Sequence record: OK283619.1
Length of the DNA: 64,000 nt
Direction: 5' to 3' (one strand)
DNA from: Escherichia phage LPEK22
Of this stretch, positions 8,442 to 42,529 are shown piece after piece. Numbering within the stretch: the first letter of the stretch is position 1; every line of letters begins with the position of its first letter. Under the pieces are notes generated by a model. It ran no database searches. It was not told the origin of the DNA and saw only the letters and a program-made list of their open reading frames with translations. The position numbers and the translations under genes were made by a program.

Positions 8442-8447
8442 TTACAA

Positions 8448-8844: not shown

Positions 8845-8907
8845 CTCAATAGGATCATCGTCAGGTTATAATTTTGCCCATTCGTCATCAATAGGATACA
8901 GATAACA

Positions 8908-11483: not shown

Positions 11484-11489
11484 TCGAAA

Positions 11490-11518
11490 GGGGGGGGGGG
11501 GAAACTCCCCTCCTTATT
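11490..11518 (+). terminator. poly-G (12 nt) / CCCCTCC hairpin, terminator-like
   Basis: G12 tract, AAACT loop, CCCCTCC, then TTATTC. Confidence 0.45.
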
Positions 11519-11542
11519 CAGATTTTTGGTAGGAGATTCAAA

Positions 11543-13855: not shown

Positions 13856-13939
13856 ATACCACACGAACTTCCCCGCCGCCTTCAATCCATGGAGGCGGCG
13901 TATAATAACAGCCTGCATAAACACAAACCGAGGATCGCT

Positions 13940-17624: not shown

Positions 17625-17633
17625 TCTTTCAAA

Positions 17634-17660
17634 GCCCCTCAATGAGGGGCTTTACTTTTG
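17634..17660 (+). terminator. terminator hairpin merging into promoter
   Basis: GCCCCTC-AAT-GAGGGGC followed by TTTACTTTT. Confidence 0.55.
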
Positions 17661-23188: not shown

Positions 23189-23237
23189 TCCGGTCTAAAT
23201 ACCCATAACACAATGAAACTTCGTTATGGGTATTTTT

Positions 23238-27768: not shown

Positions 27769-28515
27769 ATGTCACAGCTACACCGTATTTTTGGTATTGA
27801 ATTCAGTTCTAATTGCGTTCGTTATGATCGCACTCATAAAGATTCGGGTGGTAAAACCGGATATGAACTCGGTAGCCAGTTGGGATATTCCAGGGAACAA
27901 TTGTTCAATCAATACAGGCTGAATGAAACGGATCTTCTTAGGGTTATGGGCATTGAACTTGATTCCGAAGCCAGCTTGGATCTGGGCGACGAAATTCGTT
28001 TTGGTAAACCAGAAGCATTGGAATTCATTGAAGATTTCGTTTCTGGTTATACCCAAGCCGCTACGAACCGCCGCGCTGCTAATGATGCAGTGGGTAAATT
28101 CTACTTTGCGGCGAAATATCTTGCCGACAAACGTATACAGATGGAAGCCGAATTCAGTAAAGAAAATCTGAAAGCAGTTTTCGGCGAAGAAGGCGATTTC
28201 CGTTTAATGCCAGAATCTGGCACTGAATCAGCTCGTGATTTCTTTGAAAAACCATTTGTGGTCAAAGGTTGTAAAATTCTTACCGACGAAGACCACGCTT
28301 TCGCAATCCATACTGAAGTCGTTTACAATGAAGAGAATTGCCTTGTTATTTCCAGATTGTTCAACAGTCTGTCATATACAGCGTATTCTTTGATTGAACG
28401 TTGTATGGAAGAAGAGCATCGTCAGGTGGTGGTGAACAAAATTCGCTTACACGTTGAGCAGAATTTTAACGGGTTTGGTTGTGAATCCGGCGAAATCCCT
28501 AATTTCTATCTGTAG
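27769..28515 (+). CDS. hypothetical protein (248 aa)
   Basis: ORF with GAGG SD preceded by hairpin. Confidence 0.5.
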   Translation: MSQLHRIFGIEFSSNCVRYDRTHKDSGGKTGYELGSQLGYSREQLFNQYRLNETDLLRVMGIELDSEASLDLGDEIRFGKPEALEFIEDFVSGYTQAATNRRAANDAVGKFYFAAKYLADKRIQMEAEFSKENLKAVFGEEGDFRLMPESGTESARDFFEKPFVVKGCKILTDEDHAFAIHTEVVYNEENCLVISRLFNSLSYTAYSLIERCMEEEHRQVVVNKIRLHVEQNFNGFGCESGEIPNFYL

Positions 28516-28532
28516 CACAAGCAGGGGGCTGT

Positions 28533-28820
28533 ATGAAGAAATATGTTCGCCTGAACACGGTACTGGAATCTGTAATCGAATATTTCATAATGCAGCACCT
28601 CAGAGCAGAAAATGATCATGTGAGCGATGCTTTGACTTATGACCACCGGATAGTGGTTCATTCCGTCGAAATAGTGGACGACGAATTGTTGATTGCCAAC
28701 ATAGAACATGCTCTCTGGGACGAAGTTTTGGACCAGTATGTTCAACCCAAATTCACACAAATCGAGTTGTCTGCCATGTGGCCACCTGAAACAGTTTTCA
28801 ATATTGATATACAAAGTTAA
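28533..28820 (+). CDS. hypothetical protein (95 aa)
   Basis: ORF with AGGGGG SD. Confidence 0.4.
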   Translation: MKKYVRLNTVLESVIEYFIMQHLRAENDHVSDALTYDHRIVVHSVEIVDDELLIANIEHALWDEVLDQYVQPKFTQIELSAMWPPETVFNIDIQS

Positions 28821-28898
28821 TATTCACGCCAGTCCGCGCTGATACAGCGTTCCGTTGTCTAACACAGAAGTGTTAACCAACTTTTCAATAAAAAGTGG

Positions 28899-28926
28899 TT
28901 TACATCTTCTAAAAAGGCAGTATATT
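28899..28926 (+). promoter_or_regulatory. sigma70-like promoter TTTAC-N17-TATATT
   Basis: Preceded by TTCAATAAAAA box; upstream of gene 28994. Confidence 0.45.
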
Positions 28927-28993
28927 AATGTTCCAGACGCACAGTTGAACATTAGACTGCCAAAGAAGGTTACTACACAAAAGGGTTTTTATT

Positions 28994-29953
28994 ATGTCCT
29001 ATATTCTTCATATCGAGTCCGGCCTGAAATTTGAAATTGATGGTAAAACCGCTGCTGATCTTCAAGCAGAAATCAAAGGTGCAGACCTTATCATCGGCAA
29101 CGTCACGTTACGCCGTATGATGGAAGGCGTCCTCCAGTCAGCCAATGGCTTTGAACTCATCGAAGGTCTGAGCCAGGAAGAGAAAGAAGAGACTCTCGAA
29201 GCTCTTGACCGCGCTGAAGCCGAAAAAGTTAAACCGACCGAAGATGCGGGGGTTAAACAGGGCGACGGTGAATCAAATCCGGTGATTGACGCCGAAGAAA
29301 CGGTTGGGCAACCTGTCGGTGATCAAAATTCCCAGACCGTCGAAGACGGTTCTCTTGAAGTCAACAAAGACGGTTCCATTTCCCTGGTAGTTGAAGGCGA
29401 AGAAGTTCTTGACGAAGAAGCGCAAGCCCGTGCTGAAGAAGTTCGCCGTCGTATGCTGGGCACAACCGTTGCTGAAGCAATCGCCGACGTTGAAAATCCG
29501 AAGGATGATCAGGCTTTAGCGAACGCGAAGGCGGTTCTGGCCAAGAAATCTTCTGAAATGCGCCCTGCATCTTCTACCGAAGAACGCAAGCGTCGTCATA
29601 ACAAGCGTGAAGAAATGGTTGAAGCGGCTCGCGCATCCAATTATGGTCCTATCCTGGCTGCGGTTGAATCAGGGGTTGTGCCTGGGGTTTATTTGAGCTA
29701 TGTGAATCCGGATATGCGCTGGTTCCAGTTCCCTGTTACCGAACTGGCAGATGAAGCCAATCCACACGCCCGCACCAATACTTATGTTGATCTGGCGCCA
29801 ATCGTTTCCGGCGGCTGGGGGTTCAGTCTGTATGTGAATGGTAAATCATTCACCAAACGCCAGAAAATCAAAGAAACCGATGCCGAATCTCTGGTGAAAG
29901 CAATCAATGAATGGTTGCCTCAGGCGTTGGCCGAAGCGAAAGCTGCTGCGTAA
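28994..29953 (+). CDS. acidic hypothetical protein (319 aa)
   Basis: ORF downstream of TTTAC-N17-TATATT promoter; Glu/Asp-rich central region. Confidence 0.5.
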   Translation: MSYILHIESGLKFEIDGKTAADLQAEIKGADLIIGNVTLRRMMEGVLQSANGFELIEGLSQEEKEETLEALDRAEAEKVKPTEDAGVKQGDGESNPVIDAEETVGQPVGDQNSQTVEDGSLEVNKDGSISLVVEGEEVLDEEAQARAEEVRRRMLGTTVAEAIADVENPKDDQALANAKAVLAKKSSEMRPASSTEERKRRHNKREEMVEAARASNYGPILAAVESGVVPGVYLSYVNPDMRWFQFPVTELADEANPHARTNTYVDLAPIVSGGWGFSLYVNGKSFTKRQKIKETDAESLVKAINEWLPQALAEAKAAA

Positions 29954-29974
29954 TTTAATTCAGAAGCGTTCAAT

Positions 29975-30008
29975 AGATAAAGGGGCTGCTATAATAGCAG
30001 CTCCTTTT
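29975..30008 (+). terminator. hairpin with TATAAT in loop, terminator-like
   Basis: GCTGCT-ATAAT-AGCAGC followed by TCCTTTTGTTTG. Confidence 0.45.
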
Positions 30009-30010
30009 GT

Positions 30011-30688
30011 TTGTTGGAGCATGTCATGTCTTATTCGCTCAAAGGGCTGTTGAAGCGCCCTGTGCATTTGTTTGTCAAACCACCTGCTGTAGAAGGGGAA
30101 TATTCGGCACGAGGAGAGTTGTATTACATTAAAGGCTCCAATGGTAGTGGTAAGTCTACTGTGCCTTCTTATTTGGCGGAGAATGATCCTCAGGCGTATG
30201 TCGTAACCCATAACAGTAAGATCATGCTCACGGTTTGTCCATCTTACAATATTGTCTGTGTCGGTAAATATGACAAGTCTAAGTCCAAAGGGGTTGATTC
30301 TCTGAAGGATACTGAGCAGATGTTGTTCGCGTTGTCTATTGCTGACCAACCAGAATACCTGAAATATGATGTGATTTTCGAAGGCATCATTCCGTCTACA
30401 TTATTGAGTTCTTGGATTCCCCGCCTGACACGCCCACCACGTGAATTGGTCGTCCTCTTTATGGATACCCCTCTTGAAACCTGTATTGCCCGTGTTAAAT
30501 CGCGTAACGGTGGCGCAGACTTCAATGAAAGTCTGGTGGTCGAGAAGTGGGAGAGAGTTCATGATCACCGTCAACGGCATAAAGGCTTGTTCCCTACCGT
30601 TCCCGCAGGTATGATGAAGTCCGATGGCCTGACTGTAGAGCAGGCTGTTTTTGCGTTTCTCAATCGTGATTTTGGGAGTATTTATTGA
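30011..30688 (+). CDS. P-loop NTPase, putative nucleotide or nucleic-acid kinase
   Basis: Walker A GSNGSGKST; first gene of ATGA-coupled operon with TS-fold enzyme and dNMP kinase; start may be 30011 or 30026. Confidence 0.55.
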   Translation: MLEHVMSYSLKGLLKRPVHLFVKPPAVEGEYSARGELYYIKGSNGSGKSTVPSYLAENDPQAYVVTHNSKIMLTVCPSYNIVCVGKYDKSKSKGVDSLKDTEQMLFALSIADQPEYLKYDVIFEGIIPSTLLSSWIPRLTRPPRELVVLFMDTPLETCIARVKSRNGGADFNESLVVEKWERVHDHRQRHKGLFPTVPAGMMKSDGLTVEQAVFAFLNRDFGSIY

Positions 30689-31734
30689 TGGAAATCAAAG
30701 CAATTAACAACAACGACATGCTGAAACAGGCTGTCTTGGCTATCCGTGAGCACGGGATTGAATCTGACCCTGGTAACGCGGAGATCAACACAGACGGCAC
30801 TCGTTTTATTGATGGCGTGACGATCACCGTCTCTGACATCCGCGACCGTTGGCTGTCTGTTGAAGGACGCAACTCATCGGCTATTGCTGCCATCGGCGAG
30901 ACCTTCTGGGTTCTGTCTGGGCGCGATGATGTGCGCTTCTTGTCCCGTGTCCTCCCTCGCGCCGCCAACTTCTCTGATAATGGCCATACATGGCGAGCCG
31001 CTTATGGTCCGCGTCTGTACGCCCATGGCCAGCTGGATAGCGTTATCAACCGCCTACGCAAGAACCCAAATACTCGTCAAGCGTACCTCACCATCTATGA
31101 TCCGGCTCTAGATTCGGATGCTGGTCTGGCGAAGTTCAGCGAGAGCGGCGAAGCAAAGACTAAGGACATGGTGTGTAACCTGGCTCTGTTGTTCGCCATC
31201 GTTGAAGGTCGTCTGAACCTGACGGTCATCAACCGCTCACAGGATGTTCTGTGGGGGATGAGTTCAATCAACTTCATTGAGTTCTCTATTCTTCAGGAAG
31301 TGATTGCTCAGGTGTTAGATGTTGATGTCGGTCAGTACAAGCTATTCTCTAACAATCTTCATTACTACAACAATGAAGTCAGCCAGAAGCAGCTTGGCAA
31401 GATCACCAAAGACACAAAAGTCACTGGTGGTTTCATCAACTCCATGATCTACTTCACGAACGTGACCAACCAGAACCATATCCGCAATCTGTTCACTGGT
31501 GTGCTTCATCACTGTGATATCGGCAGCCCGTGGGAAACTGTTGTCGCTCACCTGAAGGAGTACGGCGCGGATCGCGGCCTGATCGTGCAGATGGCGTACT
31601 GCCTGTACTGCAAACTGAACGACAAGCTCATCAACATGAACCTGATTCAGGATCATGGTTTGAACATCGCGCTCGCTCATTCTCCGATTGACCGCAAGAT
31701 CGTTGATCCCAAGTTCTTGGAAGGTGCAGTATGA
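30685..31734 (+). CDS. thymidylate-synthase-superfamily enzyme, divergent: putative pyrimidine (dUMP/dCMP) hydroxymethylase
   Basis: Collinear with TS / dCMP hydroxymethylase core as recalled: ETFWVLSG, NPNTRQAYLTIYDP (versus NPxSRR..SAWNP), Cys in DMVCNLALLF (versus PCH), RSQDVLWGMSSINFIEFS (versus RSxDxxLGxPFNIASY); 349 aa with N-terminal extension. Confidence 0.65.
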   Translation: MMEIKAINNNDMLKQAVLAIREHGIESDPGNAEINTDGTRFIDGVTITVSDIRDRWLSVEGRNSSAIAAIGETFWVLSGRDDVRFLSRVLPRAANFSDNGHTWRAAYGPRLYAHGQLDSVINRLRKNPNTRQAYLTIYDPALDSDAGLAKFSESGEAKTKDMVCNLALLFAIVEGRLNLTVINRSQDVLWGMSSINFIEFSILQEVIAQVLDVDVGQYKLFSNNLHYYNNEVSQKQLGKITKDTKVTGGFINSMIYFTNVTNQNHIRNLFTGVLHHCDIGSPWETVVAHLKEYGADRGLIVQMAYCLYCKLNDKLINMNLIQDHGLNIALAHSPIDRKIVDPKFLEGAV

Positions 31735-32300
31735 TGTATCCGAACCTTGAATTCTTTACGGGGCGCAAGCGCTCCGGCAAGGACTTCTGTTTGGAGTCCC
31801 TCATCAGCTATCACCATTTACAGGGTGATATGGACATCCAGCGCTTATCTTTCTCGGACGAGTTGCGTCGGGTGGCTCATTACATCTATCCTTGGTTGCC
31901 AGAGGAAGTAGAGGACGATATCAAGGACTTGCCATATGTTCACCCAGATAACCCCAAGGGATTAACCCCAAGGCAGATCTGGCTTCATCTCGGCAGCGAT
32001 ACGGGGCTTCGTTATGTCCAACCGGATCTGTTTTTGTCTTTCTTTAAGCGTTACCAACTCCCATTAGTTGAACAGAATCCTAACATTCATTATATTGTGA
32101 GTGATCTACGGACGCCTCAAGAATATGAATGGGCGCTGAGCACTAAATGTCCCATCACCCGCATTTCAAAGGCAGATCGCGGCGGTATCATAGAGGACGA
32201 CATAGAGGCTTTCATTGATGAGATGAAAGTTGATTATGAATTTGTTAACCCATTTGAAGGTTGGCAACCATTCGTCAAATTTTATAGGGAACGGAAATGA
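31731..32300 (+). CDS. deoxynucleoside monophosphate kinase (T4 gp1-like)
   Basis: P-loop FFTGRKRSGKDF (T4 gp1 recalled as FLSGVKRSGKDT) and IVSDLRTPQEYE. Confidence 0.65.
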   Translation: MMYPNLEFFTGRKRSGKDFCLESLISYHHLQGDMDIQRLSFSDELRRVAHYIYPWLPEEVEDDIKDLPYVHPDNPKGLTPRQIWLHLGSDTGLRYVQPDLFLSFFKRYQLPLVEQNPNIHYIVSDLRTPQEYEWALSTKCPITRISKADRGGIIEDDIEAFIDEMKVDYEFVNPFEGWQPFVKFYRERK

Positions 32301-32848
32301 TCACAGCAGAGCATATCAAAAGTCTGCTCGAACTTCAAAAGGCCACCAACGTGGCCTATTTTGGGGAAGAGTGGCGTAAACATTGGACTCATGTGGCGGT
32401 GGTGAACTCCATCTATCGTGAGTGGGCAGAGTTTCTTGACGAAACAACCCAGGACTGGAAAATCTATGGCGGTGGGATACAATATGACCGAGAAGCAGCT
32501 GTCTACGAATTGGTGGACGTGGTACATTTTATGTTGTCTTCCATTTTATCTGGATTTGGTTCTGCTTTCCCAGTTGAAATGCAGATTGACCTTTTCTTCA
32601 AGGACGGACGAGTGATAGACAAATCGGCCAATCTGGAATCGGTCACAGAATGTTTTACGTCATTTATGGTTCAACCAGATGTTATCCGTTTTGTGCGGTT
32701 TTTATCAAAGGCTTGTGGTTATTTGGATCTGGACACCGAAACCTATATGCTGGCCCACAAGCGCAAGAACGATCGCAATCGTCTACGTGCTGCTGGCGGT
32801 GCGAACTATGACAAGTCTGCCGAAACCCCTCTGACTCTGGAGTTCTAA
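32297..32848 (+). CDS. all-alpha NTP pyrophosphatase (T4 gp56 dCTPase/dUTPase-like)
   Basis: Acidic motifs EEWRKHWTH, EWAEFLDE, ELVDVVHFML resembling dimeric dUTPase/dCTPase family. Confidence 0.5.
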   Translation: MITAEHIKSLLELQKATNVAYFGEEWRKHWTHVAVVNSIYREWAEFLDETTQDWKIYGGGIQYDREAAVYELVDVVHFMLSSILSGFGSAFPVEMQIDLFFKDGRVIDKSANLESVTECFTSFMVQPDVIRFVRFLSKACGYLDLDTETYMLAHKRKNDRNRLRAAGGANYDKSAETPLTLEF

Positions 32849-33378
32849 TGTTTACAGTTGTCGTATCATATTATGCGGAACATGCCCCGTACATGGCAGA
32901 GAACTTCGCTGAGTTTATTAAACCAGGCGGTCATGTCGTTATTGCGACCAATTTCAAGAAAGAGCCAGATGGTGCGGCTACTGTAACACAACATATTACA
33001 ACCAAAGAGCCGGAAACACTTTTTAAACGCATTGAAGATTTTGCTTTTGGCGGGGAAGAAATTCCAGAGTCATTACAGCATATCTATTTTGAAGATGCGA
33101 TATATTATGTTCATGCTATTCCAAAGGATGTTACAACTGAACAAATGATGTATATCCTGAATATCGCATTGAATGTTTCTTGTGTCAACAGGGCACAGCA
33201 CAATCGTCTGCGTAATATGTATTTAACAGAACGCGGGGGTTCCGAAATTAACGATGAAAAACTCCCGTCAATAATGGCGATTCACGAAGCAATCAATATA
33301 TTGTCCAAGAAAGTCTTGGGCACCGATTTATTAATTACGATCAACAAGCAAGAGGAAACGAAATGGCCGATTCATTGA
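32848..33378 (+). CDS. hypothetical protein (176 aa)
   Basis: ORF coupled within nucleotide-metabolism operon. Confidence 0.45.
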   Translation: MFTVVVSYYAEHAPYMAENFAEFIKPGGHVVIATNFKKEPDGAATVTQHITTKEPETLFKRIEDFAFGGEEIPESLQHIYFEDAIYYVHAIPKDVTTEQMMYILNIALNVSCVNRAQHNRLRNMYLTERGGSEINDEKLPSIMAIHEAINILSKKVLGTDLLITINKQEETKWPIH

Positions 33379-34448
33379 TGGCTCGCATGCTCAAGACAGC
33401 AAAGAAACTGGACCCGAATGCCGAAGTGCTGTCAAAGACCGATGCGCTGAAGCCTGACATTATTTGCAGTACGGGTATTCCTATTCTGAATTTGGCCTGG
33501 TCCGGTCGTATTGATGGTGGTCTGATATCAGGCATCAAACAGTTGGTGGGGGATTCTCGTACATTCAAAACCATGTTTGGGCTGGTGGATGTTAAGGCTT
33601 ACATGGATAAGTTTCCTGATGCAATTTGTATCTTCGCGGATTCAGAAGGCGGTGCGAATGAAAACTACTGGACATCTATGGGTATTGACATGGACCGTGT
33701 CTTGTATCTGCCGATTGAAAACGTTGAAAAGACGAAGATCAAGCTGACACAGCTTCTGAACGATGCACAGAAAGGTGACAAGATCATCGTATTCATTGAC
33801 TCAATCAGCCAGTTGCCGTCTACCAAAGAAGTTGATGATGCCATAGCGGGCAAAGACACACAAGATATGACCCGCGCTCGCGCTCTCAATAGTTTTTGGC
33901 GTGTTATCACCCCGTTGGTCACTGAAAAGAAATTCGTTTTGGTATGGATCAACTCGTACTATGATGAAATCGGGAACCAATACGCCGAGCCGAACATCAA
34001 AGGCGGTAAACAGGGGTTCCTGTCTTCTAACCAATTGTGGTTCATCACGCGTTCTCAAGTTAAAGAAGACAAAGACCTTTTGGGATGGCAGTTTACAGTC
34101 AACATTATGAAAGGCCGCTTTGTCCGTGAAAAAGCCAAGTTCCCTGTCACTGTGTTGTATGAAGGCGGTATTGACCGTTGGTCCGGTATGTTAGAAATTG
34201 CGCGCATGCTGGGGTATGTGGATTTGGTGAGTGGCTCTTGGTATCAACGCACTGCCAAAGGCGGGTTTGATCCAGAAAAAGAAAAGAAATATCGTAAGGC
34301 AGAGCTGGGGGATGACTTCTGGTATCCGCTGCTGGAAAACCCAGACTTTGTTGACGATGTGAACAACATGTTCGGTATCTCTCAGAGTTCGGTTATGCCT
34401 GCAGATATGCTGGAGCGCCTCGATAATGTCATCAAAACAACCGAGTAA
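33363..34448 (+). CDS. uvsX: UvsX recombinase (RecA-like)
   Basis: Collinear with T4 UvsX as recalled: ILNLAWSGRIDGG, GDSRTFKTMFGL, VFIDSISQLPSTKEVDDA, DMTRARALNSFWR, GGIDRWSGMLE. Confidence 0.85.
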   Translation: MADSLMARMLKTAKKLDPNAEVLSKTDALKPDIICSTGIPILNLAWSGRIDGGLISGIKQLVGDSRTFKTMFGLVDVKAYMDKFPDAICIFADSEGGANENYWTSMGIDMDRVLYLPIENVEKTKIKLTQLLNDAQKGDKIIVFIDSISQLPSTKEVDDAIAGKDTQDMTRARALNSFWRVITPLVTEKKFVLVWINSYYDEIGNQYAEPNIKGGKQGFLSSNQLWFITRSQVKEDKDLLGWQFTVNIMKGRFVREKAKFPVTVLYEGGIDRWSGMLEIARMLGYVDLVSGSWYQRTAKGGFDPEKEKKYRKAELGDDFWYPLLENPDFVDDVNNMFGISQSSVMPADMLERLDNVIKTTE

Positions 34449-34755
34449 TATTGCAGGGGGAGGAGACTCCCCCGTTAATTACAAAATCATCGACCCTGGT
34501 TCTGATCAGTTAGCAATAATCGAAATAACGGAAGGCAAATTCCGTGGCGTTCAATTTCGTATAGGGAAAGTGGGTGTCCATTTAGATAATGGAGAGCCTC
34601 GGTTATCCTTTACAACAGATATATTGAAGAAACCATGGCGTTTGTTATTTGTTAATTTGAAAGAAAATGACTTGTTCACTGTGGTGTCTGGGGATATCTT
34701 AGTTGATCTGATACAGCAAAATGCTCAGGATTACAACAAAATTTTGGTGGGGTAG
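34426..34755 (+). CDS. hypothetical protein (109 aa) between uvsX and helicase gene
   Basis: ORF. Confidence 0.45.
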   Translation: MSSKQPSNIAGGGDSPVNYKIIDPGSDQLAIIEITEGKFRGVQFRIGKVGVHLDNGEPRLSFTTDILKKPWRLLFVNLKENDLFTVVSGDILVDLIQQNAQDYNKILVG

Positions 34756-36186
34756 TTGCCAATGTTACTCGAATCTGTCGTGCTTTCCCAATTAATCTAT
34801 AACGAAGAATATCAAAGAAAGATCCAGCCGTATTTGAAAGCCGATTATTTCGATAACGAAGGCGAGAAAATTATATTCGGTCTCATTGACCATTACACTT
34901 GCGAATATAATGCTCGTCCTTCGGTTGAAGCGTTGTCTATTATGCTGGAAAAGACTTCGCTCAACGAACACGTATTTGAACAAGCTATTTCTGCTCTTGA
35001 GAATATCAATGACAACACATTCCATCAGGAATGGCTTGTAAAAGAAACAGAAAGTTGGGCGCGGCAGAAAGCTGTTCATAATGCGATCAAACACGCCGTC
35101 AACATCTATGGTGATGAGAAACGTAAAGATGAGATGAACACGATTCCAACTCTCCTACAAGAGGCGTTGGCGATAAGTTTTGATTCTTATCTTGGCCATA
35201 TCTATTGGGAAATGGCTGAACAACAATACGACCACATGAACTCTAATGAAGCGAAGATTCCTTTCGCTGTAGAGATATTCAACAAAGCGACTCGTGGTGG
35301 TGTTGGTAAGAAAACGCTGAACATCGTGACGGGTGCAATTAATGCGGGTAAGACAACAACTCTGATTGATTTGGCTGCTGGTTACTCCGAGCAAGGGTTG
35401 AACGTATTCGTATTCACCCTAGAAGTGGCTGAGAACGTCTGGCGTCACCGCCTTGATGCCCGTATGATGCGCAGGGACTTCGAGTCCTTAGAGAAGCTCT
35501 CACGACATGAATATGTCGCCACGATACAAAAGTTGCGAACTCGTCAAGACGGTTCCATGAAGGGTGATATTGTTATCAAGGAATATCCTTCAGGCGCTGG
35601 GCATACAGGACTATATCGCCGCGATATCCTTGATTATGCGACATCCACGGGAATTACGCCGGACGTCATTATTATAGACTACTTGGGTGAATCAGCGTCT
35701 TCTCGCCTTCCTGCCCATTTAATGCAGAACACCAACGTGTATTATACGTCGGTGGCGCGTGAATTCCGTGCGCTTGGATTTGAATTTGATTGCCCTGTAT
35801 GGACAGGTATGCAATTTAACCGTGAAAAACAATCGGCGACTGATGGTGATATTAGCGACCTGGCAGATGCTATCGGTATTCCGAAGGTTGCAGACTTCAT
35901 CATGGCGTTCTATGCCCCTGATGAACTGGCGGCTGTTAAGAAAGCCCGAGCGTCTATCTTGAAAAACCGTTATGCCAATAAACAGAAACTCAAATCGTTC
36001 TTGTTCGGTATGGATCAAGATAAACAGATATTGTTTGACTTGGATTGGAATGAAGTCAAGCGAGACCTGACAGAAGAGGAAGCCCGTTATGTTGAGAATG
36101 TTCATATCAAACATGACTTAAACAAAACAGGCGACGTAAATGATGTCAAGAAAGCCGAGACCGTGAATAATTGGAATTTCGGTTAA
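34756..36186 (+). CDS. replicative DNA helicase (T4 gp41, DnaB-like)
   Basis: Walker A GAINAGKTT; EWLVKETE and ALAISFDSYLGH parallel T4 gp41 as recalled; 476 aa. Confidence 0.85.
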   Translation: MPMLLESVVLSQLIYNEEYQRKIQPYLKADYFDNEGEKIIFGLIDHYTCEYNARPSVEALSIMLEKTSLNEHVFEQAISALENINDNTFHQEWLVKETESWARQKAVHNAIKHAVNIYGDEKRKDEMNTIPTLLQEALAISFDSYLGHIYWEMAEQQYDHMNSNEAKIPFAVEIFNKATRGGVGKKTLNIVTGAINAGKTTTLIDLAAGYSEQGLNVFVFTLEVAENVWRHRLDARMMRRDFESLEKLSRHEYVATIQKLRTRQDGSMKGDIVIKEYPSGAGHTGLYRRDILDYATSTGITPDVIIIDYLGESASSRLPAHLMQNTNVYYTSVAREFRALGFEFDCPVWTGMQFNREKQSATDGDISDLADAIGIPKVADFIMAFYAPDELAAVKKARASILKNRYANKQKLKSFLFGMDQDKQILFDLDWNEVKRDLTEEEARYVENVHIKHDLNKTGDVNDVKKAETVNNWNFG

Positions 36187-36249
36187 CTTCAATAATGGTG
36201 ATCATAGGGTATAATCTCTATGATCTGAATATTAACCCAGGAGCACATC

Positions 36250-36582
36250 ATGTCGGATGTTGCATTTATAGCTGACCTGATTCGGGCGGCACAACAGGTG
36301 TGCCAGTCTGGAGAAACCAGTCTCAAACTCACTACAGAGCAGACTCTAGAATTTTATAAGAATCGTCGGTATTGGGGTAAGAATGTCAAGATACATTGCG
36401 AACCAGGTGAATTGGTTCAGCTTGATCTTCCGTCTTTTCCGTTGCCAGTACAGACCAACACTCAGGAATATTACAATGTTGAAGGCGTTGATATTATTCC
36501 TAAGTTTGGTTTTCACAGTATCGTTTATTTCTTCCTGCGCCGTTTGGGAACCAGTATCGGTCCACTCGGTTCTCGTCATTAA
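36250..36582 (+). CDS. hypothetical protein (110 aa)
   Basis: ORF with AGGAG SD. Confidence 0.45.
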   Translation: MSDVAFIADLIRAAQQVCQSGETSLKLTTEQTLEFYKNRRYWGKNVKIHCEPGELVQLDLPSFPLPVQTNTQEYYNVEGVDIIPKFGFHSIVYFFLRRLGTSIGPLGSRH

Positions 36583-36594
36583 TGAGGATATATT

Positions 36595-36897
36595 ATGTCA
36601 GTTGAACAAATTGGTTTTTATCAACTCCCTTCTGATCCAAAACTGCGTCAAAAGATGATGCAGACTTTAGAAAATTGTCGTGCCGCCCAGATCCGTATCA
36701 AGTCTGAACAGACCTTTGTTACCGAAGCCCTGGCTGAATTGGCAAAAGAAACAGGCATCAAAGCCGTTGATCTGCGCAAAGTCGTTACCGATCGCGCTGG
36801 TGGAACTTATACCAAGACCATCGAGACCAGCGCCAAATACCAAGATCTTTATGAGTCGCTGTATCCTAACGCCGCGCCTGATCGCACGGATGAATAA
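36595..36897 (+). CDS. hypothetical protein (100 aa)
   Basis: ORF with GAGGA SD; terminator downstream. Confidence 0.45.
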   Translation: MSVEQIGFYQLPSDPKLRQKMMQTLENCRAAQIRIKSEQTFVTEALAELAKETGIKAVDLRKVVTDRAGGTYTKTIETSAKYQDLYESLYPNAAPDRTDE

Positions 36898-36906
36898 TAT
36901 CGGTTA

Positions 36907-36930
36907 AAGCCCAACATTTGTTGGGCTTTA
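36907..36930 (+). terminator. terminator hairpin merging into promoter
   Basis: AAGCCCAAC-ATTT-GTTGGGCTT followed by TACTT. Confidence 0.5.
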
Positions 36931-36971
36931 CTTCAATAAAACTTTACTTCAATAAAACTTGCGGCTATCAT
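36926..36971 (+). promoter_or_regulatory. tandemly duplicated promoter -35 region: 2 x CTTTACTTCAATAAAA, then TATCAT
   Basis: Exact 16-bp direct repeat; second TTTAC is 18 nt from TATCAT. Confidence 0.45.
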
Positions 36972-37014
36972 TTAACCTACATTGAAAAGTTTCACTACAT
37001 CATGAGAGGCAAAA

Positions 37015-38208
37015 ATGAAAGCCAAGACCTTCAGCATCCCAATTGATAACATTGGTCGTGTCAAGGAACGTCTTGCCAAACTTGAAAGAACGGCAAACCG
37101 CCTGAAACTCGAGTTCCCTCTTGTTGAGTTCAGTGAACCATACAAAACACAACACCGCGATTCTATCACTGGCGAAAAATTTTATCGTTGGTGGCAAGAT
37201 TGTACTCTAACTGGTGAAGGCATCGACCGCCCCGTTTCTTATGGTGGGTGGAGTATCATTGGACAATTCAACCACCAGTATCCAAAAGTCATTCTGAATA
37301 AACTGTCAGATGACATCCACCCAAATTTCGTTCAAAGATTTGAAGCTGAAAACGTATCTTGGTGCGAGCATTGCAACAAATCTGTGCGTCGTCATAACAC
37401 ATATGTCGTTCGTAACGAACAATCTGGCGCACAGATGCTCGTGGGTAGCAGCTGTATGCATCATTATGTCCCGCATCAGAAATCCCTTGATGCGGTTATG
37501 TCTTATTACATGTCTATTCACGAAATGTTTACCCCCGATGAAGATGACCCAGAAGGGATTTATCGGGTTAATGAACCAGATTATGTTGACACAGAAGGAT
37601 ATTTGTGTAAATGTTTTCAGGTTTTGCTGTCCGGCCTGAGCATTAAAAGTGATGATTTTGGTCGGGTTCTTGGTCATATCTCTAGCGGCACTCGTCCGGA
37701 GAAAGGTTCTGACATTGAGATATTCTATAACAAGGCTGTTAAAGCCCGTGAAGATGCTCAATCAGAGATGTATCATATGATGCTTTTCATCGCATCGTTG
37801 TCTGAAAATAACGATTTCAACGTCCGGCTGAAACGTATGTGCGAACCTGGTTATCACCTTGTTAAAGACTCAACAACAGTTCGTTGGGGAGCAGCAAAGT
37901 ATTATGATTATATCCACACCCCCCGCCAAACGCGCACTGTATCAAATTGGGTTGGTGAAGTTGGTGAAATGTTAGAAGCACAGGTCAAATTTGAAGCAAG
38001 GATTTTCCTGTATTCATCTGATTATGGTGACACGTATCTGTATACTTTCAAAACCAAGGAAGGCAATACCATTACATGGAAGACTTCCTATATGGAAACC
38101 GAGTTTTTAGAAGGCGATATGATCATTCGAGGTCGTGTCAAAGAATTGACCGAATTCAAAGGTATTAAACAAACTCAGATTACAAGGGCAAAACTGAGGA
38201 AATTATGA
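37015..38208 (+). CDS. hypothetical protein (397 aa) with Cys/His cluster
   Basis: ORF after tandem promoter; WCEHCNKS...SSCMHHY. Confidence 0.55.
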   Translation: MKAKTFSIPIDNIGRVKERLAKLERTANRLKLEFPLVEFSEPYKTQHRDSITGEKFYRWWQDCTLTGEGIDRPVSYGGWSIIGQFNHQYPKVILNKLSDDIHPNFVQRFEAENVSWCEHCNKSVRRHNTYVVRNEQSGAQMLVGSSCMHHYVPHQKSLDAVMSYYMSIHEMFTPDEDDPEGIYRVNEPDYVDTEGYLCKCFQVLLSGLSIKSDDFGRVLGHISSGTRPEKGSDIEIFYNKAVKAREDAQSEMYHMMLFIASLSENNDFNVRLKRMCEPGYHLVKDSTTVRWGAAKYYDYIHTPRQTRTVSNWVGEVGEMLEAQVKFEARIFLYSSDYGDTYLYTFKTKEGNTITWKTSYMETEFLEGDMIIRGRVKELTEFKGIKQTQITRAKLRKL

Positions 38209-38321
38209 TTCTTTTACAATTTGTTTTGAAAGCATTTGCATTCGGTCTTATCGCATGCGGAGTGATCACAGCTATGCTGTTAATCATAGCCCTGATCATC
38301 CCATTTAAGAGGAAACGTTAA
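38205..38321 (+). CDS. small membrane peptide (38 aa, MILLQFVLKAFAFGLIACGVITAMLLIIALIIPFKRKR), not in ORF track
   Basis: ATGA overlap upstream and TAATG overlap downstream; single TM helix. Confidence 0.3.
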   Translation: MILLQFVLKAFAFGLIACGVITAMLLIIALIIPFKRKR

Positions 38322-38521
38322 TGAAACGGGAAATCTTGGATGTTTACTACCCTGGATCTTGTTGTCCAGGCCATGACAAGTACCCAGCGGACACATACAA
38401 AAATCGCCGCTCTAAATCAAAACGTTCAGACGGTATTAAAAAGGAGCATCGACATGTCCGCCGTGTCAAGCGCCAAAATCTGAAATCTGATTTGCTCTTC
38501 ATTACCAAGGAGGATTTCTAA
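38321..38521 (+). CDS. hypothetical basic protein (66 aa)
   Basis: Coupled chain. Confidence 0.4.
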   Translation: MKREILDVYYPGSCCPGHDKYPADTYKNRRSKSKRSDGIKKEHRHVRRVKRQNLKSDLLFITKEDF

Positions 38522-38733
38522 TGGAATGTTCATGCGGAGGGCAAGGCACAAGTGCATACTTGCCATTTAACACCGTGAAGGAAGCCGAAGAAGCCGGATA
38601 TGCCGTGGATAAGGCTCCCTGTGTAATTGCCACCAAGGATTGTCCGTGCTGTAAGAGGCACTCTCAGGACGTGCATTACTCACCAAACGCACGTTCAGAT
38701 AAAGTCAATCTTCTTTCACTGATGAGTAAATGA
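38521..38733 (+). CDS. Cys-rich small protein (70 aa)
   Basis: MECSCGG...DCPCCKRH. Confidence 0.4.
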   Translation: MECSCGGQGTSAYLPFNTVKEAEEAGYAVDKAPCVIATKDCPCCKRHSQDVHYSPNARSDKVNLLSLMSK

Positions 38734-38734
38734 C

Positions 38735-39088
38735 ATGCGCAAATATTTTAACTGGTTGTTGGGGAAACCCCTAAGCGTCGAAATCCGTTGTCTTATTGAT
38801 GCCATCGACGCTGATGACGTTGAATGGAATGGTGAACGCTTTGTCGGTATCGATGCTGTCATCTATAACGGCGTAAGGGTATGTGCATATACAGTCAATA
38901 GCAGCGCAGGGTATAGAGTCGATATCGGTTTTTGTTTCGATTGTCTGCCATACCATGAGGCCAAGGCCGTGTATAAAGCGCTCACCCGACATCACAGGCG
39001 TCGGATTAATCGTGAAGCAATTCAGGTCGATACATATGACCGTGAAAAAGTCCGCAAAGCTCTGGGGTGTCACAATGTCAAAAGTTGA
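38735..39088 (+). CDS. hypothetical protein (117 aa)
   Basis: Coupled chain. Confidence 0.45.
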   Translation: MRKYFNWLLGKPLSVEIRCLIDAIDADDVEWNGERFVGIDAVIYNGVRVCAYTVNSSAGYRVDIGFCFDCLPYHEAKAVYKALTRHHRRRINREAIQVDTYDREKVRKALGCHNVKS

Positions 39089-39494
39089 AATCCAATGCAA
39101 ATGCTGTCCGAACAAGAAGATGGTTCGCCAGGCCGACATTGACCGTGGCTGGGGGTTGTTCTGTTCTAAGTCTTGCGCCGCCTACTGGAAGACCTTTGGG
39201 TGTCGTAAAGATACCCCAACAGACCTGTCCCTGAATGGCAAGCGACCTAAATCGGCGCAGGCAATCCTTTCTGATTTGCGGAAAGAGTCTGTCCGCCTTT
39301 CTGCTGGCCTCACTGAAGAGCAGATGGACAAACTCAATAAGGCGGGTTGTGGTCATATCCGATTCGACGGAATGGACTATCCTCTGTTCAGTTCTCGCCA
39401 GCTCAGAGTCCTTGGGGCTTCAAAGGCTGAGATAAGAGAAGCTGAACGCGATGAAGCCGAAGAGGGCGCATACGGCCATCACGATTTTCAATAA
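39075..39494 (+). CDS. Cys-rich putative zinc-binding protein (139 aa)
   Basis: CKCCPNKK...CSKSCAAYW; internal ATG of track ORF 38883..39494. Confidence 0.45.
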   Translation: MSKVEIQCKCCPNKKMVRQADIDRGWGLFCSKSCAAYWKTFGCRKDTPTDLSLNGKRPKSAQAILSDLRKESVRLSAGLTEEQMDKLNKAGCGHIRFDGMDYPLFSSRQLRVLGASKAEIREAERDEAEEGAYGHHDFQ

Positions 39495-39541
39495 ACGATT
39501 TACCCATATAATGCATGGGAACTTTACAGAAGGATCAGACT

Positions 39542-39901
39542 ATGACCACACTTGTAGAAACATTATTCCCAGGATGCACCCTTGGGCGCGGCGGTAGCGA
39601 AGCCAACGGGCTGGCAATTGACGCCGAACCCCAGAACTGTGTTGTTATCGACAAATTCCATGACAATCATTATGCTCTGAATGATCGTCGCGATCATTAT
39701 TTGGTTTCTGTGGGAGAATCTTTGGTTCACCTTCGAATCTGTTCTGCTTTACCAGGATATGGGTATGACGCATTTGCTTATATCCATGATGTTTCCAACG
39801 GTGAGATGGGGAAAGAATCCCTGATTGAAAAATTCAAGAGTTGGAAGGAATCTTTCACCTCTGCCACACCACCGAACAACAGAAAAAGACGCAGCAAATA
39901 A
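39542..39901 (+). CDS. hypothetical protein
   Basis: Internal ATG with AAGGA SD within track ORF 39515..39901. Confidence 0.4.
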   Translation: MTTLVETLFPGCTLGRGGSEANGLAIDAEPQNCVVIDKFHDNHYALNDRRDHYLVSVGESLVHLRICSALPGYGYDAFAYIHDVSNGEMGKESLIEKFKSWKESFTSATPPNNRKRRSK

Positions 39902-39954
39902 ATCTATTGAAGTCTCTAGGGTTATAATAGCATGACGAATAACCCTGGAGACAC

Positions 39955-41382
39955 ATGATGCTTCCTCTTTTAGAAATAATTCAAAATCTTCGCGATACCA
40001 AAGGCACCAACGCCAAGAAAGCTGTGCTGACCGAGGCGTTCAGAAACAACCCAGAATTGGTTGATTTCCTTCAATACGTCTACGACCCGATGCGTTCTTA
40101 TTACCGCACTCAATTCAATCTAAACGCATTCCCTCGCATGCTTTCGCGCGGCGTTGTTGGTAGCTGGGATCAGGTTTATGACGTTCTCGATATGATGGCC
40201 GAACGCAAGATCGGTGGGATGAAGGCAGATCAAGAACTTGCGAAGGCCGCGACCAACATCCATCCGGATTACCATACCCTGATACAAATTATACTCGACA
40301 GAGACATCAAAGCGGGAATTGCCGAGAAAGGTATAAACGCAGCATTCAATGCGGCAGGTGGTACAGGGCGTCTGATTAATATCCTTCCATATCACCGTTA
40401 TGATAACATGACGATTGACTTGCTGAAGAAGATGGACTTCAAGCGCGGCGTCTTCAGCCAGCTGAAGTCAGATGGCATGTTCGCCAACATCATCTGTCGT
40501 TATGGAAGAGACCCAGAGATTCGTTCTCGTTCCGGTTCTCTTATTGCGGGTGGTTCCGTTGATAACCTGTCATTGGTTTTCAAAGACCTGATCTATGATG
40601 CGGGGATTGGTGAAAGCGTCTTCCATGGTGAACTGCTCGTCATTGATCTGAAAACGAATACAGTGTTGCCTCGGGCTATCGGCAATGGTAAGCTCAACAG
40701 TGTCATCCAAACGGGTGAACCCCTGGAAGATCGTTACAAGGTGATCTACCGAGTGTGGGACGTTGTGCCGTATGATAATTGGTTCAATGCTCAGCGTGTG
40801 GACACCCCATATGAGCGCCGTTTTGATATCATACAACAGTTGTTCGAAGGGGATGACGGACTGGTTCAGGTTCAAGAAACCCGTGTTGTTCATTCATTTG
40901 AAGAAGCTGTCGAACACTTCAAAGACGCTTTGGCTCGTCGGGAAGAAGGCACGATTTGTAAGGCCGCAGATATGCCTTGGGAAGATGGAACATCATCTGA
41001 AGGGTTAAAGCTAAAAATGGAAGTAGAATGTGACCTTGAAATCGTTGGCTTCAACGAGGCCGATAAGAAAGGGAAGCACGCCAAGACATTTGGATCTCTC
41101 CTCTGCAAGACCTCTGATAGCCTCTTAGTTGTTGGCGTATCGGGGATCTCAGATGAGTTGAGACTACGAATGTGGGAAAACCAAGAGGACTTCATTGGTA
41201 AGATTGCCGCCGTGCTCTCTAATGGCGTACAGGATAAAACCGATGACGCCATGAAGTCTCTATTCCTTCCACGTCTCGTTGAAGTACGCACAGACAAGAA
41301 AGTCGCTAATACACTGGCTGAAGTCTATGCTATCCAGAAAGCATATATCGAAAATATTTTGGTGTTGTTGGAAGCGGCATGA
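39955..41382 (+). CDS. ATP-dependent DNA ligase (T4 gp30-like)
   Basis: Adenylation motif QLKSDGMF (KxDG), 475 aa. Confidence 0.8.
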   Translation: MMLPLLEIIQNLRDTKGTNAKKAVLTEAFRNNPELVDFLQYVYDPMRSYYRTQFNLNAFPRMLSRGVVGSWDQVYDVLDMMAERKIGGMKADQELAKAATNIHPDYHTLIQIILDRDIKAGIAEKGINAAFNAAGGTGRLINILPYHRYDNMTIDLLKKMDFKRGVFSQLKSDGMFANIICRYGRDPEIRSRSGSLIAGGSVDNLSLVFKDLIYDAGIGESVFHGELLVIDLKTNTVLPRAIGNGKLNSVIQTGEPLEDRYKVIYRVWDVVPYDNWFNAQRVDTPYERRFDIIQQLFEGDDGLVQVQETRVVHSFEEAVEHFKDALARREEGTICKAADMPWEDGTSSEGLKLKMEVECDLEIVGFNEADKKGKHAKTFGSLLCKTSDSLLVVGVSGISDELRLRMWENQEDFIGKIAAVLSNGVQDKTDDAMKSLFLPRLVEVRTDKKVANTLAEVYAIQKAYIENILVLLEAA

Positions 41383-41386
41383 AAAT

Positions 41387-41410
41387 CGGGGTTCTTCGGA
41401 ACCCCATTCA
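41387..41410 (+). terminator. terminator-like hairpin after ligase gene
   Basis: GGGGTTC-TTCG-GAACCCC followed by ATTCAATAAA. Confidence 0.45.
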
Positions 41411-41459
41411 ATAAAGACAGTAGCAGTATAATTCCAAGAAATCATTACCAGGTGTTATT

Positions 41460-41723
41460 ATGAAACTTATTGATAAGAAACCAAGGAAAGACAATGATTC
41501 TCTTAATCTCATAAACATTATGAGGGAATTGGGAGTTTCTGAATTACAGATGATGAAGATGATGAATTGTTCTGACGTTGTCTATAATTGGACAAACGGT
41601 TATCGTCTTATCCCAAAATCTTTTCGGCGTTTTATTCTGGCGTTGGTTTTTATTCACCGACAAGGGAAGACAGAAGAGTTTCAACGTTTCGTTCGCACAG
41701 AGGAGAGATCACGTGGTTGGTAA
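41460..41723 (+). CDS. hypothetical protein (87 aa), possible HTH
   Basis: ORF. Confidence 0.4.
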   Translation: MKLIDKKPRKDNDSLNLINIMRELGVSELQMMKMMNCSDVVYNWTNGYRLIPKSFRRFILALVFIHRQGKTEEFQRFVRTEERSRGW

Positions 41724-41866
41724 AAATCCGCCGTCATATGCCAAGATTGGAATTGCTTTTCGAAACGCCATTCTCTTTATAAAGGAGAAAGGCTTGGTGA
41801 CGGAGTTCAATCAGTTCTGTTCTGAACGCCGCAGATTACAGAAACAGAAAAGCAGGGAGAAACGCC

Positions 41867-42529
41867 ATGATAACTGAGTGGGAGAAAATGCAATATGAAA
41901 GGGCATTCAACGTTTATTGCATCTATATGGCGATCAAATTGCATTTCACCACAAAAGACTTTGATTATGGCCTGTATGGGCCGATGAACAATTACAAGTT
42001 TGAAACGTTCTATTCTAAACAGGGCGTGGCCAAACAATTTGCTAAACTTGCTCGTCGGTTCGAATCTTCCCAAGGTGAAGTGGTGGAAAATTATATTATT
42101 GCCAACTTTGTTAAATCACCAAAGACGTGGGTGACAACATTACTTACAAGACAGGCTCAAGAAAATTATAATGAATATCGCCGCCTGTATGACAACTTCT
42201 CATATAATTTTCTTGAACATTTTGAGAGATATATGATCCCTGAGATAAAAGAAAGAGGCGTGAATTTTATCCAATATATCAAAGGAAATGGTAATGGGCA
42301 TCCACCTTTACTGACAGATATTATTGTTAAACGCTATCCAATTTGGTTTCTCGTTGGATTGAATAAAGTAGTGGGGTTCATCCATTTATATGATACAATA
42401 CTCAAGGATGACATCTATTGGAACTCTGAGTCCTTTTTATTAAAGAAAACCAATTCAGTTGTTCCTGATGAAAACACAGAATACACAAAAGGAAAACTCC
42501 GTGAGCTAATCCTTGCCCACGGAATTTGA
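41867..42529 (+). CDS. putative helicase loader (T4 gp59-like)
   Basis: Weak resemblance to T4 gp59 N-terminus as recalled (YMAIKLHF...DFDYGLYGPMNNYKFETFYSK). Confidence 0.35.
   Translation: MITEWEKMQYERAFNVYCIYMAIKLHFTTKDFDYGLYGPMNNYKFETFYSKQGVAKQFAKLARRFESSQGEVVENYIIANFVKSPKTWVTTLLTRQAQENYNEYRRLYDNFSYNFLEHFERYMIPEIKERGVNFIQYIKGNGNGHPPLLTDIIVKRYPIWFLVGLNKVVGFIHLYDTILKDDIYWNSESFLLKKTNSVVPDENTEYTKGKLRELILAHGI

Follow-up and report, generated by a model that had tools for sequence, protein, structure and literature searches.

Why should inverted repeats placed 10–40 nt before gene starts carry a TATAAT hexamer in or beside their loops, several times over in a single phage genome? Four such palindromes had been pointed out in the DNA of Escherichia phage LPEK22 (sequence record OK283619.1), and the original prediction offered two readings of them, either dual-use elements that terminate or process transcripts arriving from upstream while serving as promoters, or binding sites for a dimeric regulator. 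Here we have followed both readings through the whole stretch of 64,000 nucleotides (hereafter the window) and through related genomes.

Genomic context of the four sites

By its sequence, the window is a genome segment of a Kuttervirus (family Ackermannviridae, CBA120/ViI-like). Positions 28000–42000 show 99.7% identity to the Salmonella phages BPS6 and S117 and 99.4% to Escherichia phage CBA120, the annotation of which guided our gene map. Intergenic DNA makes up 6.5% of the window and the spacers are very short (50–65 nt). For comparison, we retrieved from IMG/VR the regions around the kinase gene, the helicase gene, nrdA, and the gene at 55072–55485 from about 20 Ackermannviridae genomes, and aligned their orthologous spacers. 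All four palindromes are present in the sequence, although the second lies at 36200–36225, about 7 nt to the left of the place first given (36207–36232). Following the CBA120 annotation, they are located as follows:

Site 1, + strand: between orf076 (28994–29953) and orf074 (ATG at 30026)
Site 2, + strand: between the gp41-type helicase gene and orf064 (ATG at 36250)
Site 3, + strand: upstream of the DNA ligase gene (ATG at 39958)
Site 4, + strand: upstream of nrdA (ATG at 13940)

orf074 encodes a 5-hmdU DNA kinase (match to Pfam PF18748, E 2.4e-113), so that the kinase operon of the original prediction marks the beginning of the thymidine-hypermodification cluster.

A putative terminator with a predicted promoter in its loop before the 5-hmdU DNA kinase gene

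The spacer of site 1 contains the following features:

29969–29975, + strand: TTCAATA box, 14 nt upstream of the putative −10 (about −33 to −27)
29979–30007, + strand: candidate terminator hairpin AAAGGGGCTGCT-ATAAT-AGCAGCTCCTTT, after orf076
29990–29995, + strand: TATAAT, putative −10 in the hairpin loop (TGCTATAAT, extended −10)
30005–30012, + strand: U-tract TTTTGTTT, then the SD GGAG (30016–30019) and the kinase ATG

The core of the palindrome, GCTGCTA[TAA]TAGCAGC at 29985–30001, can be extended to 13 pairs (29979–30007) and folds at −28.6 kcal/mol with a z of −6.3. It has the attributes of an intrinsic terminator, namely a G+C-rich stem of 12–13 bp, a short loop and a U-tract, and it was the top terminator-like site in a scan of 20–40 kb (13 pairs, six of them G-C, with the tail TTTTGTTTG). 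Its ortholog in Taipeivirus KWBSE43-6 (MK373783) is annotated as an ARNOLD terminator. Among near relatives the stem varies by G·U, G-C or A-U only, and the TTCAATA box is the same in every Ackermannviridae ortholog except L040 and L042. The distant genomes L039 and L040 have different stems (GGGACTGC/GCGGTCCC and AAAGGCCGC/GCGGCCTTT, respectively) and still keep TATAAT in the loop, with a T-tract behind it; these stems are in another register, no single structure string runs over all genera, and these two were judged by folding. The sole exception to TATAAT in the alignment is LIMEstone1, with TATTAT in its place.

Transcription usually starts 7±1 nt after the −10, which would put the start near 30000–30003, within the 3' arm. 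Site 1 thus appears to be a full intrinsic terminator with a promoter in its loop. An extended −10 (TGn) is present at this site only. We also observe that the loop itself is the consensus −10 hexamer, conserved across genera, unlike the loop of an ordinary intrinsic terminator.

Hairpins before orf064, DNA ligase and nrdA

At site 2 the palindrome at 36200–36225 consists of the arms GATCATAG and CTATGATC around GGTATAATCT, and the features are these:

36188–36194, + strand: TTCAATA box, 2 nt past the helicase stop codon
36200–36225, + strand: hairpin GATCATAGGG-TATAAT-CTCTATGATC, its loop being TATAAT (36210–36215), without a U-tract

The box is unchanged in 12 distinct orthologs and is found in L040 and L042 too; at the orthologous place L040 has GTGGTA-TAAT-TACCAC. 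The centroid hairpin has −13.5 kcal/mol, and the 71-nt fold is no more stable than its shuffles (z −0.66). In the alignment 97.4% of the cells are paired, against 33–54% in slid controls, and three pairs have been altered on both sides (nine cells), a covariation score matched by none of 500 shuffles, a control that overstates significance, the aligned sequences being related. The predicted start would lie near 36222, in the 3' arm. Dam methylation was considered and rejected, as the two GATC sites in the arms are not both conserved.

Site 3, before the ligase gene, is different in that its box is inverted and its hairpin reaches the translation signals:

39904–39911, + strand: inverted box CTATTGAA (reverse complement of TTCAATAG), 11 nt before TATAAT
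39912–39952, + strand: 14-bp hairpin GTCTCTAGGGTTAT/ATAACCCTGGAGAC, pairing 39912–39925 with 39939–39952

The palindrome (AGGGTTAT and ATAACCCT around AATAGCATGACGA) is at 39918–39946, TATAAT (39923–39928) lies across the junction of the 5' arm and the loop, the predicted start would fall in the loop near 39935, and the ligase SD GGAG (39947–39950) is inside the 3' arm. The fold has −21.6 kcal/mol, a z of −4.3 and an ensemble frequency of 0.43. All cells of the alignment are paired (100%, six distinct sequences), and where a pair varies (A-U, G·U, G-C) only one of its sides has changed. This hairpin probably masks the ligase Shine-Dalgarno sequence: around the translation start the predicted unpaired fraction is 0.30 in the read-through RNA and 0.49 in the promoter-proximal RNA, and the geometry fits a short transcript without the 5' arm, given a start 7±1 nt after the −10. 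The ligase leader of L039 folds into another hairpin, one that covers the AUG directly after a TAAAAT −10. The geometry CTATTGAA-N11-TATAAT is repeated on the − strand at 55059; there, the box and the stop codon of the preceding gene overlap.

The hairpin of site 4, before nrdA, precedes its TATAAT:

13852–13859, + strand: late-type box TTAAATAC, just upstream of the hairpin
13874–13900, + strand: hairpin CGCCGCCT-TCAATCCATGG-AGGCGGCG, with a TTCAAT box (13881–13886) in its loop
13901–13906, + strand: TATAAT, directly after the 3' arm, unchanged in 10 distinct orthologs

Here the predicted start, near 13913, would be downstream of the whole hairpin. Again 100% of the cells are paired; three pairs are altered on both sides and none of 500 shuffles reaches the score, with the same reservation about related sequences. 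The 83-nt fold has a z of −3.0, and L055 and L056, which belong to the most distant genus, have AACCGC...GCGGTT at this place. The box at 13852–13859 is probably a late promoter, similar boxes being found before structural genes (22179 and 47442, − strand), and another option is that RNA started there would bear the site 4 hairpin at its 5' end.

Predicted promoter architecture

TATAAT occurs 54 times in the window, compared with 32.7±6.1 expected, and TTCAATA 41 times compared with 14.5±3.9. The combination TCAATA-N5-17-TATAAT was found seven times against an expectation of 0.2, and TCAATA-N-TATAAT six to seven times against 0.1–0.2. Of the 77 TCAATA copies, 18 fall within intergenic DNA, which is 6.5% of the window. 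In L039 and L040, from distant genera, the composite of box and −10 appears three times per 21 kb (0.01–0.02 expected), and in L040 the TATAAT of all three such promoters is in the loop of a hairpin, the stems being unrelated. The distance from the end of TATAAT to the start codon is 29–35 nt at eight sites, with an SD in between, the exceptions being 4779 (47 nt) and ssb (72 nt). This spacing holds whatever the place of TATAAT relative to the stem, which may be the loop (sites 1 and 2, and 55059, see below), the arm-loop junction (site 3) or just outside the hairpin (site 4). All this suggests that TATAAT is a −10 promoter element rather than a mere loop sequence.

Sites 1–4 are absent from a consensus scan for −35 and −10 (at least 4/6 matches per hexamer) and have no acceptable −35. 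We tried TTCAATA as a −35 hexamer and discarded it, given that it matches TTGACA at only 2–3 of 6 positions at a spacing of 16–18 nt and that the scanner omits these sites. The centre of the box lies at about −27 to −31. Its distance to the −10 is 11–15 nt, or 7–11 nt when a TTTAC −35 is also present, and this overall range of 7–15 nt is loose for a fixed promoter element. At times the box is inverted, or located upstream of a TTTAC −35. Pfam searches of the small proteins encoded near the sites gave no regulator domains.

The predicted starts would fall within the 3' arm (sites 1 and 2, 39507 and 55059), within the loop (site 3) or past the hairpin (site 4). Because of a start in the loop or the 3' arm, promoter-proximal RNA would be unable to form the hairpin. 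In the Kuttervirus and Ackermannviridae literature that we searched there are no mapped RNA starts or ends and no relevant RNA-seq, and for CBA120 the early and middle promoters could not be identified (Kutter et al., 2011, PMC3184105).

Structure statistics and conservation

There are 233 perfect palindromes in the window (stem of at least 6 bp, loop of 3–14 nt), 37 of them intergenic. Compared with flank shuffles, the local fold z was −7.9 at 29990, −4.2 at 36210, −3.7 at 39923 and −2.8 at 55059. Of the ten TATAAT promoters that the window has in this class, about six bear a hairpin that lies on the −10 or adjoins it. When the 15 intergenic TATAAT sites were compared with the other TATAAT sites, the excess of structure was not significant (Mann-Whitney p = 0.12), and so the hairpin is to be seen as a frequent, not obligatory, feature of the promoter class. 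The Rfam scan of the whole window gave no family.

The palindromes at the four sites are not chance, and their hairpins are conserved across Ackermannviridae genera. In the aligned spacers the TTCAATA box, TATAAT and SD are nearly invariant (TATAAT is invariant in the alignments of sites 2–4), whereas drift is seen in the flanking spacer and at coding wobble positions. The −10 seems to be under selection of its own, being kept in loops with unrelated stems in L039 and L040. The stems of the four sites together have 300 Watson-Crick cells, 49 G·T, no A·C and three others. The presence of G·T and absence of A·C point to a structure of the sense strand, either RNA or non-template DNA, and not to a symmetric protein site in duplex DNA. 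If it is the RNA that folds, and transcripts start inside the hairpin, the stem would exist only on RNA that reads in from upstream.

Other promoter and hairpin combinations in the window

Two further cases resemble the four sites:

55047–55064, − strand: GGCGGTA[TAAT]TGCCGCC, enclosing TATAAT (55059–55054), 31 nt before orf019 (ATG at 55022)
39503–39519, + strand: CCCAT[ATAATGC]ATGGG, a weak case, with TATAAT at 39507–39512, TTCAATA at 39487–39493 and the orf053 ATG at 39542

The first of them is GGCGGTA-TTAT-TACCGCC in relatives, with TATTAT, and the gene downstream varies among relatives, making it a breakpoint in gene content. The hairpin of the second (−5.2 kcal/mol, z −0.3) is not significant alone.

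Promoter and stem elements are superimposed in other ways as well. The TTTACT-N16/17 arrangement is present at other promoters of the window (4757, 10889, 17651 and 36943), and the TTTACT −35 doubles as the T-tract of several terminators (4740–4762, 17631–17656 and 36905–36932). Late-type boxes ([C/T/A]TAAATA[C]) are found in terminator loops at 8446–8469 and 3381–3406, and overlapping a 3' arm at 7573–7595. At 23197–23235 there is a 13-bp hairpin the 5' arm of which is a late-type box, while the 3' arm holds an ATG of the RuvC-like resolvase gene; in relatives, one substitution and the insertion of one pair are both compensatory. Similarly, 8873–8882 pairs with 8906–8915 across the ATG of the orf107-primase operon, and in relatives a C-to-T change is matched by G-to-A. 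Thus, the SD or the start codon would be base-paired in the long transcript at three places, site 3, 8873–8915 and 23197–23235. The box with TATAAT is also found without any hairpin, at 41427 and 8867.

Proposed mechanism and alternative explanations

From this evidence we favor, as the probable explanation, composite promoter/stem-loop cassettes of an Ackermannviridae phage, in which a nested promoter would escape a hairpin that acts on read-through RNA. As duplex DNA, TATAAT would be the −10 of a host sigma-70-type promoter without a −35, with the TTCAATA box near −30. Such promoters would probably be of a delayed-early or middle class devoted to DNA metabolism (nrdA, ssb, the 5-hmdU kinase/thyA operon, ligase and the primase operon). 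In RNA coming from upstream, the inverted repeat that flanks the −10 would fold into a hairpin, and this could act in three ways: (i) by terminating transcription, as at site 1; (ii) by hiding the SD or the start codon, as at site 3 for ligase and likewise at 8873–8915 and 23197–23235; or (iii), which is a guess, as an attenuator or RNA-end-stabilising hairpin without a U-tract, at sites 2, 4 and 55047–55064. RNA from the embedded promoter, devoid of the 5' arm, would escape termination or masking. In this manner each downstream gene or operon would be shielded from transcription coming from upstream and have its expression driven by a promoter of its own.

The dual-use proposal of the original prediction is therefore the best fit to the evidence, partly supported as far as the sequences go. 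In its favor are the stems that preserve pairing, the G·T without A·C, the terminator at site 1 and the TATAAT kept despite stem replacement. Its terminating part is narrower than proposed, since only site 1 has a U-tract; none was found at sites 2, 3, 4 or 55047, and sites 2, 4 and 55047 would not pass as intrinsic terminators. The processing part fares worse: RNase III needs about two helical turns, and on these general grounds processing of stems of 8–14 bp is unlikely. Masking of translation is likewise restricted. The hairpins of sites 1, 2 and 4 and of 55047 leave the translation start unmasked, and at most sites the region around that start is predicted to open modestly or not at all. 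We have discarded RBS masking as a general explanation, a clear shift in predicted accessibility being confined to three genes (ligase, the kinase gene and orf019).

A wider suggestion, which we make tentatively and with some doubt, is that TTCAATA near −30 with a perfect TATAAT and no −35 might define an Ackermannviridae delayed-early/middle class served by a phage factor like MotA/AsiA but unrelated to them, the hairpins blocking early read-through until the factor acts.

The serious alternative is a plain overlap forced by the short spacers, in which ordinary terminators or stabilising stem-loops and ordinary promoters would be crowded into 50–65 nt and the −10 would have no benefit from being in a hairpin. 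The very short intergenic regions are in line with it, as are promoters of the same class that have a terminator upstream of the box (41388–41405 before 41427, 4740–4759 before 4779), a hairpin at 24861 that has decayed in the LPEK22 lineage while the promoter remains, and the roughly four out of ten promoters of the class in the window that have no hairpin on the −10. We nevertheless consider it unlikely, because the −10 in a loop recurs at non-orthologous promoters and survives full replacement of the stem (three of three in L040), and because at site 3, 8873–8915 and 23197–23235 the geometry ties the position of the promoter to a masked translation start. Moreover, A/U-rich loops of 6–13 nt weaken the hairpins, and their retention suggests joint selection of both functions.

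A structure-dependent promoter at the DNA level would have the non-template strand form the hairpin, by supercoil extrusion or in the single-stranded DNA of replication or recombination, and so show a single-stranded −10 to sigma. G·T without A·C fits the sense DNA strand as well as RNA, the −10 lies in the loop with G-rich and C-rich arms immediately flanking it, and the promoters have no −35. Stems of 7–10 bp with loops of 4–13 nt extrude poorly, however, at site 4 the −10 is outside the loop, and a U-tract (site 1) and pairing with the SD (site 3) are meaningful only for RNA; to our knowledge, going by the annotation, no hairpin-recognising polymerase is known for Ackermannviridae. We regard this possibility as very unlikely. 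Next in order, and scarcely probable, UAUAAU could be an RNA loop motif on polycistronic RNA, recognised by a protein that binds or cuts RNA (for instance a translational repressor or a processing enzyme), and no promoter at all. The loop sequence is indeed better conserved than the stems, but the hexamer is the exact sigma-70 −10 consensus, the upstream DNA box co-occurs with it far above chance, box and TATAAT go together without a hairpin at 41427 and 8867, and the place of TATAAT relative to the hairpin varies (loop, arm-loop junction or outside), yet the hexamer ends 29–35 nt before the start codon at eight sites. Finally, operators of a dimeric DNA-binding regulator overlapping the −10, the second reading of the original prediction, would account for a dyad symmetry centred on or near the −10, but hardly for arms without a common half-site (GCTGCT, GATCATAG, AGGGTTAT, CGCCGCC and GGCGG) that undergo compensatory substitutions whereas neither the loop nor TATAAT changes, with half-sites 3–13 nt apart and frequent G·T pairs, which in duplex DNA would be symmetry-breaking mismatches between half-sites, and we find this reading hardly credible.

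Comparison with known phage regulatory cassettes

Taken as composite cassettes, these sites are close to what has been described in T4-type phages. PeSL and PmSL stand for promoter-early and promoter-middle stem-loops, respectively, and such cassettes are known from the phages RB49/phi1, T4/PST and KVP40/nt-1. PeSL stem-loops of RB49/phi1 are mostly located between −35 and −10 or overlap the −10, their stems being often a G-run and a C-run (Arbiol, 2010, PMC2839356), and one of them cut lacZ expression like the rrnB T1 terminator (PMC2839356), in a study that used reporter assays for promoter and terminator activity and inverse PCR for recombination between cassettes (mini-circles). PmSL cassettes combine a Mot-box promoter, which has no −35, with a stem-loop (Comeau, 2014, PMC4122927). 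As in these, we find an intergenic host-type promoter and stem-loop followed by the SD and start codon, with a stable stem-loop in the promoter or adjoining it, which is read as a terminator or attenuator of upstream transcription. There is also a likeness to PmSLs as the middle-promoter version with a −30 box, and to both types in a single cassette, 55047–55064, situated at a breakpoint of gene content between relatives. On the other hand, sites 1–4 have neither a −35 of the TTGACA/TTTAC type nor a TGCTT Mot box, and have TTCAATA near −30 instead. The copies here share only the box, the −10 and the SD, with unrelated stems and no conserved block of ~100 bp. Sites 1–4 are at orthologous positions before core replication and nucleotide-metabolism genes, whereas PeSLs are mainly around ORFans and indels in hyperplastic regions.

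Hairpins that sequester the RBS and have an internal promoter are known in T4 for I-TevI, I-TevII, I-TevIII, segB, mobE, e, soc and others (PMC2988022). The arrangement is similar at site 3, 8873–8915 and 23197–23235, where the long transcript would hide the SD or AUG and the shorter RNA of an internal promoter would be unable to fold. The T4 internal promoters are late (gp55) and serve late genes, in contrast to site 3, with a sigma-70-type −10 and an early/middle gene.

T4 middle promoters have a MotA box, (a/t)(a/t)(a/t)TGCTTtA, at −30, separated by 12±1 bp from an excellent −10 (PMC2988021). The promoters described here are like them in the excellent −10 without a −35, the box near −30, the location before DNA-metabolism genes, and the coexistence of upstream read-through with a dedicated promoter. 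They differ in that TTCAATA is not a MotA box, its spacing is looser and it is sometimes inverted. A MotA-dependent middle promoter was rejected, as the box has another sequence and no MotA/AsiA homologues have been reported in the CBA120 family (Kutter et al., 2011, PMC3184105). With regard to intrinsic terminators, site 1 is alike, and sites 2, 3, 4 and 55047 differ in having no U-tract.

Biological significance

We did not find a PeSL-type description for Ackermannviridae in the literature searched, and what we have here appears to be a variant of the T4-type promoter/stem-loop regulatory cassette, a kind of element not previously described for this family. The promoter-in-hairpin principle of T4-type phages would thereby be extended to a distant family, with evidence from covariation added to it. 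For a family whose early and middle promoters have been reported as not identifiable, this provides a concrete and testable promoter model, i.e., TTCAATA near −30 and TATAAT, with the start inside a hairpin. On the practical side, it marks positions where an engineered insertion would disrupt a terminator and a promoter together. The model spans replication and nucleotide-metabolism genes, including the operon that opens with the 5-hmdU DNA kinase of the thymidine-hypermodification pathway, in a phage family widely used in biocontrol of Salmonella, E. coli O157, Klebsiella and Dickeya.

Predicted promoter boxes and terminators

The TTCAATA(A/G) box is in strong excess in the window, with 41 copies against 14.5 expected. 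The intergenic copies are mostly oriented with transcription, and lie at a variable distance (7 to 15 nt) from the TATAAT-type -10 hexamers of predicted promoters.

4733, 4765, 8846, 10896, 24844, 28884, 29969, 36188, 36932, 36948, 39487, 41407: intergenic examples of the TTCAATA(A/G) box
39905, 55071: inverted copies

The box is also found inside the spacer of TTTACT-type promoters, and at 28884 it is located upstream of a -35. At three terminator hairpins the T-tract runs directly into TTTACT which, judged from sequence, would correspond to a T4-early-like -35 in the layout TTTACT-N16/17-TATAAT, TATACT or TATCAT.

4740-4762, 17631-17656, 36905-36932: terminator hairpins with a T-tract continuous with TTTACT
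36925-36956: tandem duplication of CTTTACTTCAATAAAA (-35 plus TTCAATA box), present as a single copy in some relatives

Another motif, [C/T/A]TAAATA[C/G/T], probably represents the late (gp55-type) promoters of Ackermannviridae. It occurs, among other places, in minus-strand spacers ahead of baseplate genes, and three of the boxes form part of terminator hairpins.

3381-3406, 7573-7595, 8446-8469, 12051, 12077, 13852, 22179 (minus strand), 47442 (minus strand): intergenic late-type boxes

A run of 12 G, also intergenic (AAAGGGGGGGGGGGGAAACTCCCCTCC, 11484-11525), may be either a tract prone to slippage or an artefact of sequencing; base pairing with the CCCC just 3' of it is also conceivable.

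Hairpins over start codons and leader conservation

Two predicted structures cover start codons, both with compensatory changes among relatives.

23195-23235: 13-bp hairpin AAATACCCATAAC/GTTATGGGTATTT ahead of the RuvC-like resolvase gene
8873-8882 with 8906-8915: TTTGCCCATT pairing with AATGGGCAAA, spanning ATG 8908 of the orf107-primase operon

In the first, a late-type box (CTAAATAC) makes up the 5' arm, and the 3' arm covers ATG 23226 of the resolvase gene; the CBA120 annotation places the start of this gene at the second in-frame ATG, 23238. Relatives show one compensatory substitution and one compensatory inserted pair in this hairpin, whose arrangement resembles the control of T4 gene 49. 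In the second, TTTGCCCATT lies immediately 3' of the TATAAT at 8867; the predicted fold reaches -17.5 kcal/mol (z -3.6), and relatives carry TTTGCTCATT/AATGAGCAAA, a compensatory change. The orf064 leader (CTGAATATnAACCCAGGAGCACATCATG, 36226-36252) hardly varies from genus to genus, yet the adjoining coding sequence diverges, suggesting that this 5' UTR is under additional constraint.

Genes downstream of the promoter-hairpin cassettes

The hairpin with TATAAT in its loop at 29979-30007 precedes a 5-hmdU DNA kinase gene (PF18748), for which the name "terminase small subunit" in some records looks like a misannotation. A thymidylate-synthase-like gene comes next, and the 30026-31734 region is therefore a thymidine-hypermodification cluster. 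At 55023-55071 the promoter-hairpin cassette is conserved and the downstream gene varies among relatives (loci L130, L134, and L136-L138). This cassette marks a gene-content breakpoint, as described for the PeSLs, the promoter and stem-loop cassettes of the T4-type phages RB49 and phi1.
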